In this document: piece after piece, positions 59,163 to 64,000 of the stretch | How the letters are laid out: each line of letters opens with the position of its first letter | Numbering within the stretch: the stretch's first letter is position 1 | From: Escherichia phage vB_EcoM_G2494 | Strand: one strand, 5' to 3' | Sequence record: MK327935.1 | Length of the DNA: 64,000 nt | Position numbers and translations under genes: made by a program | Notes under the pieces: generated by a model | The model's input: the letters and a program-made list of their open reading frames with translations, nothing else | The model's database searches: none | What the model was told of the DNA's origin: nothing

Positions 59163-59381
59163 TTATTTATATCGCTTTCTCTCGCGACGTTTTTGATCTT
59201 CTTCCTTGATAGAGTTAAATGCATCAAAAAGACACATGAAACTAATAATAAACATAACCGTATTTTCTATGATATCCCACGGCTTCGCATCAGTACAGAT
59301 CCCCCAAACGGTAAGAAATGCAAATAGTGCAGAAGAGATCACAAGCATGATACTTGCTAAGATATAAAAAGTCATTTTCAT
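59163..59381 (-). CDS. small membrane protein
   Basis: 72 aa, two TM helices, basic C-terminus. Confidence 0.4.
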   Translation of the reverse strand: MKMTFYILASIMLVISSALFAFLTVWGICTDAKPWDIIENTVMFIISFMCLFDAFNSIKEEDQKRRERKRYK

Positions 59382-59572
59382 GGTTTTACCTCAATTCTTC
59401 GATATTCATCACACATCCACGCAGTAAGCAAGAATCCCAACACATAAGCAACAAAATACGTTAATGCTTCTTCTGGTTCGGTGCTATGCGCCATCATCAG
59501 ACCAGCGAGAAAGGTCTTAACAATTACATTTAAAATAATTAGCCACGCAAATAATTTCATCGTTTGCCCCAT
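59378..59572 (-). CDS. small membrane protein
   Basis: 64 aa, two TM helices. Confidence 0.4.
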   Translation of the reverse strand: MGQTMKLFAWLIILNVIVKTFLAGLMMAHSTEPEEALTYFVAYVLGFLLTAWMCDEYRRIEVKP

Positions 59573-59796
59573 TTCGGTCGAGTCTTTTCAAACTTATACA
59601 TTCCGTAACAATCTCGAATCATCCACGTAACAAGAGCACCAGTCAACACAGACAATACACAGAAGAAGTAAAACGGTCCGGTTGCATTATCAACATGAGC
59701 AAGCCAGGTAAAGAAAACACATGCTAAGAATGTGAAGAACATCATAAAACACAAGAAAGCAAAATATTTTATGCTACTCATAGCGCCACCATACAA
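59557..59796 (-). CDS. small membrane protein
   Basis: 79 aa, two TM helices. Confidence 0.4.
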   Translation of the reverse strand: MYGGAMSSIKYFAFLCFMMFFTFLACVFFTWLAHVDNATGPFYFFCVLSVLTGALVTWMIRDCYGMYKFEKTRPKWGKR

Positions 59797-59884
59797 CAGA
59801 TCATAAGAAAACCCAACGCAATAAGAATTGCATCAAATTTAGTGAACTCCGGTCCACCTATCAACATCATTCGTTCTATTTCGT

Positions 59885-60127
59885 TCATAGCGTACAAAGC
59901 CATTTAAAAGCACCACATAAAGCGAGCAGAATACTAGGTATAAACGAGATCAAAACAAGGTTGCAAAAATCATCTAAGGTAACACCGGAATAGCTACCTA
60001 CTGTAACAACACCGATCATCAGACACAGAAAGAAAACAAATGCAATCAGAAACAAAGTATTACTAAACAGTTTAGTGATCATTAGACACCCCACGACGAT
60101 CAATTTCAAAAACTTTTTTATCATCAA
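59885..60127 (-). CDS. small membrane protein
   Basis: 80 aa, two TM helices. Confidence 0.4.
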   Translation of the reverse strand: MMIKKFLKLIVVGCLMITKLFSNTLFLIAFVFFLCLMIGVVTVGSYSGVTLDDFCNLVLISFIPSILLALCGAFKWLCTL

Positions 60128-60275
60128 CGAAGCATGTCACAACTGCCTCGTTGACTTCCGCAAATTGTTGTGTTACCCACTTAAGGTCAGAGCGAAACAA
60201 TGTTCTATTAATAACAAATGTTTTACCGCTCTTATCCTTACCCATAAATTTTGCTTTAACCATATCAAATTCCAT
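60072..60275 (-). CDS. hypothetical protein
   Basis: 67-aa ORF. Confidence 0.4.
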   Translation of the reverse strand: MEFDMVKAKFMGKDKSGKTFVINRTLFRSDLKWVTQQFAEVNEAVVTCFVDDKKVFEIDRRGVSNDH

Positions 60276-60293
60276 ATTATCACCTTATTTGCT

Positions 60294-60443
60294 AATCGCT
60301 AAACCCAATCCGAAGAGAGCACCCGATGCTACAGTATACCCGAAAGTTTCAAAGGCAGTAAAGATATCTAAGCCACCAGCTAACAGAGTTGCAGTAAACA
60401 GAGTACCAGCTACGAACATAAAAGTTTTACCGATGAATTTCAT
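60294..60443 (-). CDS. small membrane protein (unlisted ORF)
   Basis: ~50-aa hydrophobic ORF (MKFIGKTFMFVAGTLF...) behind conserved leader AGGAGAATCAAA-ATG; below table cutoff; coordinates approximate. Confidence 0.35.
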
Positions 60444-60469
60444 TTTGATTCTCCTTTCGTTTGTTTGTG

Positions 60470-60503
60470 GGGGTATCTTACTACCCCCGTTTCATGTTGT
60501 CAA
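60470..60503 (-). promoter_or_regulatory. sigma70-type early promoter with dyad symmetry (PeSL-like)
   Basis: TTGACA - 17 nt - TAAGAT; inverted repeat GGGGGTA/TACCCCC around -10. Confidence 0.45.
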
Positions 60504-60509
60504 CTATTT

Positions 60510-60884
60510 TTAAGAATATTTTACTTCGTCTACAATGTCTTTCATGACATTGATTTCCATTCCGGTCAGAACACGTTGGAACATGTGCTGCACATACGCT
60601 TTCAGGTATTCATTTGATGGCTTGCTATCGAAAGTCTTTTTAGTGTAGTAGTCATCACCGAAAGCTACTGTAATTACATTTTCGTCGTCGTTCCAAGCGA
60701 TATAAGCAAATTTGCCGTTATCCCAGAAGCGAGCACTAATTGCTACTTTTGTTGAATCGAATCCTACTTCGCTGTGAGATTCAAGAACTACTTGCGTACC
60801 AGTTTCTTTATGAATGTAGTAGCGGGATACTAAGTCAAAGTTACGGGTGTAGTGACATTCGAATTTATCTTTAAACATCATCAT
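60510..60884 (-). CDS. hypothetical protein
   Basis: Trimmed to MMMFKDKFE... behind conserved leader ...AGGAGAATCAAA-ATG. Confidence 0.45.
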   Translation of the reverse strand: MMMFKDKFECHYTRNFDLVSRYYIHKETGTQVVLESHSEVGFDSTKVAISARFWDNGKFAYIAWNDDENVITVAFGDDYYTKKTFDSKPSNEYLKAYVQHMFQRVLTGMEINVMKDIVDEVKYS

Positions 60885-60920
60885 TTTGATTCTCCTAAGT
60901 GTGTTTCGTTTCGATATGTG

Positions 60921-60951
60921 CATTATGCTATAGTCGTTTATGGTTGTCAAC
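60921..60951 (-). promoter_or_regulatory. sigma70-type early promoter with conserved leader
   Basis: TTGACA - 17 nt - CATAAT then leader CACATATCGAAACGAAACAC. Confidence 0.5.
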
Positions 60952-60960
60952 ACCTAAAAA

Positions 60961-60987
60961 CAAAAAACCCCGAAAAATTTTTCGGGG
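60961..60987 (-). terminator. intrinsic terminator after Acb1-like gene
   Basis: CCCCGAAAAATTTTTCGGGG hairpin followed by TTTTTTGTTTTT on minus strand. Confidence 0.55.
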
Positions 60988-60994
60988 TATAGAA

Positions 60995-61465
60995 TTACAG
61001 TTTGGTCGTCCACTCCAGGTCTAGATCTTCGACATACTCATGAGATCGGACAATCTCTAAATCGAACTCTAGGTTAGTGCCAAATTTACGCGCACCAACA
61101 TCATAAGAAAGCGTGATATGCGGTACATATTCAGGATAATCCCACGTCGCACCTAAAGCAGTGCCGATATCGTGTCTGAATTGCATGTAGTCGCTTTCAA
61201 ATGCCAGCACAAGCGCATTAGTACCGGATTGAGTTTCAAACACTTTCAGATGGCATAGAGAGCCTAAGAACTTCTCCCCTTCTTCTGGGATAAACGGAAC
61301 ATAGACACGAGAATATAAGATAGTGCTATGCAGTTTATCACGAGGAACGGCATTAGGCAGATCGTAGAACTCCTGCAATTTTTCAATGCGGTCTAGTGTA
61401 TCCTCAGTGAATTTAACCGCCGCATATGTACCTTTAACGGATTCTCGAAACGGGGTCATAATCAA
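60995..61465 (-). CDS. 2H phosphoesterase, Acb1-like (anti-CBASS cyclic-oligonucleotide phosphodiesterase candidate; T4 57B position)
   Basis: 156 aa; two H-x-T-x motifs (HSTIL, HITLS) typical of 2H phosphoesterases; immediately upstream of 57A as T4 57B/Acb1. Confidence 0.6.
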   Translation of the reverse strand: MIMTPFRESVKGTYAAVKFTEDTLDRIEKLQEFYDLPNAVPRDKLHSTILYSRVYVPFIPEEGEKFLGSLCHLKVFETQSGTNALVLAFESDYMQFRHDIGTALGATWDYPEYVPHITLSYDVGARKFGTNLEFDLEIVRSHEYVEDLDLEWTTKL

Positions 61466-61728
61466 GCCTCCGTGATCAGTTCTACTTCCTCTTTAGCGTC
61501 TTCCGCTGCTTCGTCTTTAGGGAGAAGTGCTTTCACTTCTTCGACAATAGCATCAAGGGAAACAGTCCCGTTTTCGTCTGGCTGAATACCCAGAATGCGT
61601 ACCAGTTCCATCAATACACGCTCACGATCTTTCAGTTGGCCTTCTAAGAATGCGGCCTTTTCTTGAGTGTCAAACAGACGTACTTTCAGGACATTAATCA
61701 TTTGTTCATGCTGATTGGACATATTCAC
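61462..61728 (-). CDS. 57A: tail fibre assembly chaperone 57A
   Basis: 88 aa; helical acidic protein resembling T4 gp57A, located upstream of gene 1. Confidence 0.65.
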   Translation of the reverse strand: MNMSNQHEQMINVLKVRLFDTQEKAAFLEGQLKDRERVLMELVRILGIQPDENGTVSLDAIVEEVKALLPKDEAAEDAKEEVELITEA

Positions 61729-61754
61729 ATCTCCTACTTGTTGATAACTTTTTA

Positions 61755-62411
61755 TTAAATGTTCGCGAGAATCGCGCTTTCAAATTCTTCTAATGTACCA
61801 TTATTTATGATAATGGTTTCACCGTCAATAGGCAAAATTCCTTTTTCGGTGGAGTGAGTCGATACAATACCAGTATCACGCTGAATATGCAACACCTTAG
61901 CACCCATAGAACGCACGAGAGCAATTTCAATAGGCTGACGCACATCAACCACTACAAAATAACCTTCTTCATTTTTGCGCTTCATAAACTCATTCACGAA
62001 GAGATTACACCAATAAAGCGGATTGATCAAGTTAACCATTATATCAGTACCGAGAGTGGTTAACATGAGACGAATAGACCAGACGTTATTATGTTTTTCG
62101 CCAATCTCATTAACGACCTTGTAAATCTCAGCCAGACGATCACAAGTAAAGGAACTACCGCCATACTTCGAATCTAGCATAAGCAGACACTGAATAAACC
62201 ACTTATGCGCGGTATAGGTATCAATACCTAGATCGGATTCTCTGTCACGCCCTAACCCGTCAAAGTCAAGATAAGTCAGACCTAAGTCTGGTTGACATTC
62301 GCACAATATTTCTTTGATCGGTGCTGCCAGTTGATAACTATGTCCATCAATGATTAACGCGGCAGTGTCTTTTCCTACTCGCTTTTTACCACAAAGTGCA
62401 ATCAATTTCAT
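61755..62411 (-). CDS. 1: deoxynucleoside monophosphate kinase
   Basis: 218 aa; MKLI-L-G-KR-GKDT P-loop, WSIR-LM-TLGTD, PIRDG-like blocks as T4 gp1. Confidence 0.85.
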   Translation of the reverse strand: MKLIALCGKKRVGKDTAALIIDGHSYQLAAPIKEILCECQPDLGLTYLDFDGLGRDRESDLGIDTYTAHKWFIQCLLMLDSKYGGSSFTCDRLAEIYKVVNEIGEKHNNVWSIRLMLTTLGTDIMVNLINPLYWCNLFVNEFMKRKNEEGYFVVVDVRQPIEIALVRSMGAKVLHIQRDTGIVSTHSTEKGILPIDGETIIINNGTLEEFESAILANI

Positions 62412-62426
62412 TATATAAGCCTCTTA

Positions 62427-63017
62427 TTACTTTCTAAAAGCAGGGTGCATAGCTTTAATACCTTCCACCCTCTGACGATCCGCCGCCTGAATTGCTGGGC
62501 GAGGAACGATCAGTTGACCATCACGTTCAATGCTCATTGTTTTAAAGGGAAGAATTGCAGTACACACCAGAGATTCATGCATATCATCGGTGTATGTTAA
62601 CTCAAGTTCCCCCAATTGTGAACACCAACAACCATAAAAGTTAAAAGTGCACACAATGTTACGTCGTTCGTTGTCCATCATGTGAACTTGAACGGCTTCC
62701 GGCATTGAATCCTTCCACGCAGTGGAGTTACCGTTATTGTAGTCTACTATAGAAAGCATCCATGTGTAAAGGTTTAGATAACTTTCCAAATGCTCATCGA
62801 CAATAAACCGGACTACCAGCGGGTCAAACTCTACATGACTAGACGGATAATCAGCAACCGCCAAACCATATTGACCAGCAACTTGTTTAGTCGGTGGAAT
62901 GGTTATAGCAGGAAGTGTAACACCTTGAGCATTTAAAGTAAAGCCTTTTGTTAGTTGCCCATCTGGAATATTGATCTGCCAGTTGCTGGGGTTAGCATAG
63001 TTAAAGAGATTAGACAT
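62427..63017 (-). CDS. putative tail completion / sheath stabiliser protein (gene 3 position)
   Basis: 196-aa ORF following gene 1 as gene 3 does in T4; sequence identity not verified. Confidence 0.4.
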   Translation of the reverse strand: MSNLFNYANPSNWQINIPDGQLTKGFTLNAQGVTLPAITIPPTKQVAGQYGLAVADYPSSHVEFDPLVVRFIVDEHLESYLNLYTWMLSIVDYNNGNSTAWKDSMPEAVQVHMMDNERRNIVCTFNFYGCWCSQLGELELTYTDDMHESLVCTAILPFKTMSIERDGQLIVPRPAIQAADRQRVEGIKAMHPAFRK

Positions 63018-63206
63018 TACTGATTCCTCAAATGAAAATATTTATTAACAATTGTCGCTTTGCGACGTGCCGTAGGCACTGACTACTTTTTAACCTAAAC
63101 AAATTTTTATTATTCTAAAGATCTTTCTTCGTTTTGGTTATGTTTTAACCAATAACTATATTTTTATACAGTAATAAATAAAACGGGTACTATACGAGGA
63201 CTTCTT

Positions 63207-63461
63207 ATGACAGAAGACATTTTGTTAAAACTCTATGATCGTTTGGACAACGAATTGGCAACATTGCGGGGTGAAGTTCTCTATTTGTCTAAATGCAATA
63301 CAGATCTGCTTAAGCAGATTGCAGAAAGGGATGATCAAATAAAATCCCTTTCAGGTGCATTACGTGATCGCGACAAGGCATTAGAGATTTTACAGCGTGT
63401 TACCAATAAGGAAGAATTAAAAGACTTCTTACATGGTTATGCTCATGCTATCGATCTATAA
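63207..63461 (+). CDS. hypothetical coiled-coil protein
   Basis: Only convincing plus-strand gene: 84 aa, GAGGA SD, AT-rich upstream region with AATAAATA late-promoter-like motif, followed by strong hairpin terminator. Confidence 0.5.
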   Translation: MTEDILLKLYDRLDNELATLRGEVLYLSKCNTDLLKQIAERDDQIKSLSGALRDRDKALEILQRVTNKEELKDFLHGYAHAIDL

Positions 63462-63488
63462 TAAAAAAAGCCCGTCAATGACGGGCTT
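63462..63488. terminator. bidirectional intrinsic terminator
   Basis: GCCCGTC-AAT-GACGGGC hairpin flanked by A-run and T-rich tract, between convergent genes. Confidence 0.6.
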
Positions 63489-63492
63489 AATG

Positions 63493-64000
63493 TTATGCAT
63501 CCTTCCAAACTTTCCTTGCGTCGTATTTCTTGCCTTTTGACATAAACTGATATGTCGGCATATAGATAATATTGCTCCAGTCTTTCGGGCTAATCTCAAC
63601 AAGTTTTGTTTTAATGTGTCCCGGTAGATATGCTTTGATCATGTGATCACTTCCACGCATACCTTTTACATCGCTCCATTTGATTTTTAAGCGTGTTTTA
63701 TTGCTCAAGGTAGGAGTAGATGCATATTGCTTTAAAAGTGCTTCCAGAAACTGCTGACGGGCTTTAGGCGTTACATAGTGTAAGTTAAGACCCAGCATTA
63801 CAGTATTACCCGCCTTTGTCTTAGAATCACCCAGACAAATGATCAGCGGGAAAACATCCCAATATGGCAAAGTGTCTTTATACTTCGCATCATACATAAA
63901 GGTATAGATTCGCCCTACTTGCGGTTTTACAATCTGGTGTCCCTTTATTCCCGCTTTTATTGTTTTAGTAAACCACTCCTGTGATTTTTCTTTAGGACGA
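63493..64000 (-). CDS. late structural protein, C-terminal part (gene 2- or 4-like by position)
   Basis: ORF open to the window edge (>=168 codons, start beyond 64000); convergent with the plus-strand gene; assignment by synteny only. Confidence 0.35.

Follow-up and report, generated by a model that had tools for sequence, protein, structure and literature searches.

Gene 57B of a Krischvirus coliphage encodes a probable orthologue of the anti-CBASS nuclease Acb1

Results

We analyzed a 64,000-nt stretch of the genome of Escherichia phage vB_EcoM_G2494 (MK327935.1), hereafter the window, and focused on gene 57B (acb1), a short gene on its minus strand at 60995..61459. It directly follows gene 57A (61462..61722, minus strand), which we assigned as a tail-fibre chaperone from matches to PF17594 GP57 (E = 2.9e-6) and phrog_1002 (E = 3.2e-26), an ATG start with AGGAG, and the annotation of phage JSE. 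Two further genes on the same strand served as synteny anchors: gene 1, encoding a dNMP kinase (61755..62411; PF21448, E = 1.6e-67), and gene 3, encoding a tail completion or sheath stabiliser protein (62427..63017; phrog_45, E = 4.9e-43; PF06841; JSE annotation). The minus-strand order 3-1-57A-57B is common to the window, JSE, and T4, which bears out the proposal of a first-pass annotation that the gene occupies the slot of T4 gene 57B. The same annotation had placed the gene immediately upstream of 57A. The two do adjoin, but both lie on the minus strand, so acb1 is transcriptionally downstream of 57A and would be called upstream in plus-strand coordinates only. Past gene 3, a lone 84-aa ORF on the plus strand (63207..63461), hypothetical in JSE, separates it from a minus-strand gene that is labelled "endonuclease" in JSE and extends from about 63493 off the end of the window.

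The locus is well represented among deposited genomes. Over the 2.1 kb around acb1, 58 published Krischvirus genomes, including those of JSE, vB_EcoM_011D4, G2248, and KFS-EC, match the window at 98.8-99.3% DNA identity. The gp57B of RB49, JSE, Phi1, and other Krischvirus phages is the product of the same gene, and these proteins are about 99% identical to that of the window.

We then considered where the coding sequence begins. The first-pass annotation had delimited an ORF at 60995..61465, which is a minus-strand frame of 156 aa if counted from a TTG at 61465. This ORF exists and is intact, but its start moves to an ATG at 61459, giving 154 aa followed by a TAA stop. The TTG overlaps the TGA stop of 57A (61464..61462) and has a spacer of 1 nt to the sole Shine-Dalgarno sequence. 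That sequence, a GGAGG read at 61467..61471 on the minus strand, falls within the last codons of 57A and 7 nt before the ATG. In the RefSeq record of JSE (NC_012740.1), 57B is annotated as a CDS of 465 nt (L001:4595-5059), equal in length to the one delimited here. Given the favourable position of the GGAGG relative to the ATG, the 1-nt spacer of the TTG, and the length of the JSE coding sequence, the true start of acb1 is likely the ATG at 61459 and not the TTG. The matches to Pfam PF23474 and PDB 7T26 described below also support this coding sequence. The ATG follows the 57A stop after a gap of 2 nt, with which translational coupling between 57A and acb1 is plausible.

Signals surrounding the gene suggest how it may be transcribed. 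At 60951..60988 on the minus strand, starting 6 nt after the acb1 TAA, a hairpin (ACCCCGAAAAATTTTTCGGGGT) and the T run behind it resemble an intrinsic terminator. The hairpin itself (60988..60967) has a GC-rich 9-bp stem with 5 GC pairs, followed by TTTTTTGTTTT, and the T's extend to about 60951. Terminator features are also annotated at the acb1 locus in the record of phage vB_EcoM_G2248. Directly after the hairpin lies a near-consensus sigma-70 promoter-like site (TTGACA-17-CATAAT; 60950..60922, minus strand), which would start a separate unit. Since a hairpin and T run follow the stop codon and are in turn followed by a separate promoter, acb1 looks like the final gene of a 57A-acb1 (or 3-1-57A-acb1) transcript. 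Sigma-70-like sites, which are consensus matches only, were also present inside gene 1 (61828..61800) and at its start (62438..62410). The T4-type late promoter TATAAATA was absent from 60000-64000 and occurred once at 59164.

The genes downstream of acb1 differ from those of T4. The position that ipI, an anti-restriction gene, takes in T4 is filled in the window by an orphan gene of 124 aa (60510..60884, minus strand; phrog_15253), followed on the same strand by a 52-aa gene (60285..60443; phrog_16462) and dmd (60072..60275). The last of these, discriminator of mRNA degradation, is an antitoxin-like anti-defence gene recognized by PF17587 (E = 1.5e-15) and phrog_2102 (E = 2.3e-31). Both orphan genes are restricted to Krischvirus-like phages. 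The 124-aa protein had a sub-threshold Pfam match to Gp30.7 (E = 0.004), no sequence match in the PDB, three close homologues among 5.8 billion proteins, and two matches among 1.84 billion representatives. AlphaFold2 (AF2) modelled it with low confidence (pLDDT 65.7), and a fold search of BFVD with the model returned the RB49 orthologue only. The arrangement of acb1 with the 52-aa gene and dmd downstream resembles a small anti-defence island.

Several other features of the window are described here for completeness. Downstream of dmd, five small and very hydrophobic ORFs of 41-80 aa lie head to tail at 59163..60127 on the minus strand. Four of them were scanned against Pfam and none scored above threshold; the ORFs look like small membrane proteins. 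T4 carries a second anti-CBASS gene, vs.4 (Acb2). Searching with tblastn, we found no homologue of T4 vs.4 or ipI below E = 1 in the 64-kb window. Three tandem paralogues of 111, 86, and 64 aa (52230..52565, 52626..52886, and 52868..53062, minus strand; phrog_6261 / phrog_15978) share the motif C-[AS]-H-L-x-x-[RD]-[KT]-W. These phrog_6261 paralogues sit between regB and an RlaP-like gene, roughly in the place of vs.3, vs.4, and vs.5 of T4. The RlaP-like gene (53084..53782, minus strand) encodes a nucleotidyltransferase of 232 aa of the RlaP or "RNA repair pathway DNA polymerase beta" type (PF10127, E = 2.8e-14) and is called nrdC.11 in JSE.

Multiple searches converged on the family of the acb1 product. 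It matched the Pfam model of the anti-CBASS protein Acb1 (PF23474) over profile positions 1-143 of 144, with an E-value of 1.3e-51 and a score of 174.6 bits relative to a gathering cut-off of 27 bits. It also matched phrog_755 (E = 1.1e-54), and its sole match in a sequence search of the PDB was Acb1 of Erwinia phage FBB1 (7T26/7T27; E = 2e-43). T4 57B found the gene in the window by tblastn with an E-value of 1.9e-40. In a three-way alignment, the product had 54% identity with FBB1 Acb1 and 47% with T4 gp57B, which is itself Acb1 (NP_049750.1), the founding anti-CBASS nuclease, and is encoded in the same slot and on the same strand after 57A. All 64 homologues retrieved from a large protein database carried PF23474, and some of them go by "Anti-CBASS protein Acb1" in UniRef and "RNA ligase" at NCBI. 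Homologues of acb1 in 1472 phage records belonged mostly to T4-like phages of Enterobacteria, Acinetobacter, Aeromonas, and Vibrio. No NCBIfam model matched Acb1 or its neighbours.

The name "RNA ligase", which is also the RefSeq and PHROG label, raises the possibility that the protein is instead a 2H enzyme of the LigT type, that is, a 2'-5' RNA ligase or RNA 2',3'-cyclic phosphodiesterase with RNA ends as its substrates, for instance during tRNA repair. LigT-type enzymes such as E. coli LigT (5LDI) do share the 2H superfamily fold and two HxT/S motifs with the window protein. Their Pfam models also produced matches, although both were sub-threshold: 2_5_RNA_ligase2 (PF13563) at E = 0.0012 scored 19.3 bits against a gathering cut-off of 27, and LigT_PEase (PF02834) at E = 0.06 scored 14 bits against 23.3. 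By comparison, the score against the Acb1 model lay far above its cut-off.

We next compared functional residues. Hobbs et al. (2022) identified the catalytic tetrad of Acb1, HxT/HxT, as H44, T46, H113, and T115 (PMC9117128). The base-stacking aromatics are Y12, W74, F107, and W147, and E141 contacts adenine N6, all in T4 numbering (PMC9117128). A C-terminal lid formed by residues 145-152 in T4 and FBB1 Acb1 closes over the ligand (PMC9117128) and is needed for activity (10.1101/2025.08.21.671373). Residues of the T4 and window proteins corresponded one to one: Y12, H44, and T46 keep their numbers, and W74, F107, H113, T115, E141, and W147 of T4 align with F74, Y108, H114, T116, E144, and W150, respectively. 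The two motifs named in the first-pass annotation were both found in the ORF, HSTIL with its histidine at 61330..61328 and HITLS with its histidine at 61120..61118. The first contains H44-S45-T46-I47 (61319..61330, minus strand), aligning with H44/T46 of T4 and FBB1 Acb1, and the second contains H114-I115-T116-L117 (61109..61120, minus strand), aligning with H113/T115 of T4. The lid corresponds to residues 148-154 (LEWTTKL; 60998..61018, minus strand), which include W150 and align with the T4 and FBB1 lids.

These positions were also conserved among homologues. H44, T46, H114, and T116 were invariant (63/63), Y12 was kept in 62 of the 63, E144 was glutamate in 57/63, and W150 was tryptophan in 48/63. 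Position 74 was more variable, with phenylalanine in 41 homologues and tryptophan in 22, and position 108 was F, Y, H, or W across the same 63. The window protein has an aromatic residue at all four stacking positions (Y12, F74, Y108, and W150). At two of them, F74 and Y108, it agrees with FBB1 Acb1, which was crystallized with the hydrolysed product of 3'3'-cGAMP (PMC9117128). Judged from the alignment, every residue that defines Acb1 is present in the window protein.

Such conservation bears on whether the protein could be an inactive relic, or serve a purely structural role, in which the fold was kept and catalysis lost. The reading frame is intact with a ribosome-binding site and a terminator, the catalytic tetrad and the ligand contacts are all retained, and the protein is 95-99% identical over 57 related phage records. 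Because conservation is complete and identity among these phages is so high, a relic is very unlikely, to the point of being negligible.

The predicted structure was in agreement with the sequence searches. An AF2 model of the acb1 product built from 62 sequences had a mean pLDDT of 91.3 and a pTM of 0.84. Low confidence was confined to residues 1-5 and 151-154, and at the latter it is as expected for a flexible lid. Searching the PDB with Foldseek, the model superimposed on 7T26 with a TM-score of 0.97, an rmsd of 0.9 Å, and 52% identity, and on 7T27 with a TM-score of 0.94. The next-best structures were those of a 2H phosphodiesterase from Burkholderia phage BCSR5 (9Q2G, 9Q2Y), at TM-scores of 0.66-0.73. 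LigT-type structures (5LDI, 5LDM, and related entries) also appeared in the list, but with TM-scores of about 0.5 (0.45-0.58), an rmsd of about 7 Å (4.5-7.7 Å), and 10-13% identity. Moreover, LigT-type enzymes are without the C-terminal lid and base-stacking set of Acb1, whereas the window protein conserves the Acb1-specific ligand residues Y12, E144, and W150 along with the lid. We therefore rejected a LigT identity on the basis of the Pfam thresholds and the structural superposition, and regard it as highly improbable. The first-pass annotation had named a closer relationship to LigT as the finding that would speak against Acb1; we found LigT to be the more distant relative in both profile and structure.

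Taken together, sequence, profile, structure, and synteny uphold the Acb1-like identity proposed in the first-pass annotation. We conclude that the window gene is very probably the Krischvirus (RB49/JSE-type) orthologue of T4 gp57B, that is, an Acb1 predicted to act on CBASS signals.

Among characterized proteins, FBB1 Acb1 is the most similar to this Krischvirus Acb1 along the full chain, with a similar length, the same tetrad, the same F/Y stacking states, and the C-terminal glutamate and tryptophan. The FBB1 structures represent the apo form (7T26) and the form with the 3'3'-cGAMP product (7T27). FBB1 Acb1 lacks a two-residue insertion that the window protein has around 128-129, and the phages differ in genus and host, the window belonging to a Krischvirus of E. 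coli. Relative to T4 Acb1, the window protein has F in place of W74, Y in place of F107, one additional residue near 80, and two additional residues near 128, in the N128-L129 region. The BCSR5 phosphodiesterase (2H PDE-9) belongs to the structural group of Acb1 and cleaves 3'3'-cGAMP (10.1101/2025.08.21.671373). However, it is only 16-18% identical to the window protein, its lid is N-terminal, and it cleaves 2'3'-c-di-AMP poorly (10.1101/2025.08.21.671373).

The differences from T4 Acb1 leave room for an Acb1 enzyme whose substrate range has shifted, such that its main target differs. It might, for example, spare 2'3'-c-di-AMP and so not trigger Panoptes, or favour trinucleotides. Identity to T4 Acb1 of less than half, the two aromatic substitutions, and the two small insertions are compatible with such a shift, and 2H phosphodiesterases of the same group are reported to differ in 2'3'-c-di-AMP cleavage, with the core setting specificity (10.1101/2025.08.21.671373). 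Against this, F74 and Y108 match FBB1 Acb1, which processes 3'3'-cGAMP, and phenylalanine is the majority state of the family at position 74. All ten of the Acb1 homologues tested in an earlier study cleaved 3'3'-cGAMP and cAAA (PMC9117128), and the active-site residues of the window protein give no hint of change. On balance, we consider a shifted range of this kind unlikely and retain the reading of a typical Acb1.

Discussion

Published biochemistry provides a detailed expectation for the protein encoded by this gene. Acb1 cleavage is metal-independent and occurs 3' of adenosine, with 3'3'-cGAMP, cUA, cAAA, and cAAG being cut but not cGG or cA4 (PMC9117128). The ten homologues mentioned above comprised T4 Acb1 and nine others, and a T4 Δacb1 mutant was more sensitive to CBASS (PMC9117128). 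The RB49-type phage vB_EcoM-G2494 was one of the 57 phages in the lysate screen of Hobbs et al. (PMC9117128). More recently, T4 Acb1 was ranked among the most promiscuous viral 2H phosphodiesterases and was found to also cut 2'3'-c-di-AMP and cA3 (10.1101/2025.08.21.671373). Cleavage of these two molecules makes phages with Acb1 targets of Panoptes guard systems (10.1101/2025.08.21.671373; PMC13577387). Our literature search returned no paper naming Acb1 together with RB49, Krischvirus, or JSE.

For the window's Acb1, we infer the activity, substrate range, and anti-CBASS effect in vivo. By homology, the protein would be a small metal-independent 2H phosphodiesterase whose U-shaped beta-sheet pocket takes up 3'-5'-linked cyclic di- and trinucleotides made by the CD-NTases of host CBASS systems. 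Its predicted substrates are 3'3'-cGAMP, cUA, cAAA, and cAAG, each ligand having at least one adenosine. Y12, F74, Y108, and W150 would stack on the bases, E144 would read adenine N6, and the C-terminal lid would shut over the bound ligand. In the strained ligand, the 2'-OH of adenosine would attack the 3'-5' phosphodiester, driven by H44/T46/H114/T116, and the reaction would proceed through a 2',3'-cyclic phosphate intermediate to a linear product with a 3'-phosphate. The signal would thus be gone before CBASS effectors fire, leaving the effectors inactive and allowing the phage to escape abortive infection.

The surroundings of the gene invite a more speculative reading. Tentatively, and with considerable doubt, we suggest that a small anti-defence island may begin with acb1 and continue in a separately promoted early unit of the 124-aa gene, the 52-aa gene, and dmd, in which case the two orphans might be new anti-defence proteins. 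Separately, and just as tentatively, this Acb1 may have another substrate range than T4 Acb1; a difference in 2'3'-c-di-AMP cleavage, and with it in the triggering of Panoptes, would be one example.

Publications already cover the gene as well as its family, structure, and mechanism, and the locus is about 99% identical to deposited genomes having a 57B annotation. Mechanistically, the Krischvirus acb1 adds nothing new. Almost every one of the 58 near-identical records labels 57B "RNA ligase", "gp57B conserved hypothetical protein", or "hypothetical protein". The first of these is an older name resting on the 2H fold and not on experiment. The protein is a clear Acb1, and the public labels "RNA ligase" and "hypothetical protein" for 57B are out of date.

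Our analysis confirms an intact Acb1 in coliphages of the RB49/JSE type, several of which are candidates for phage therapy. These phages are therefore predicted to be resistant to many CBASS systems. By the same token, an intact Acb1 predicts sensitivity to guards such as Panoptes, which fire on the depletion of cyclic nucleotides (10.1101/2025.08.21.671373; PMC13577387).
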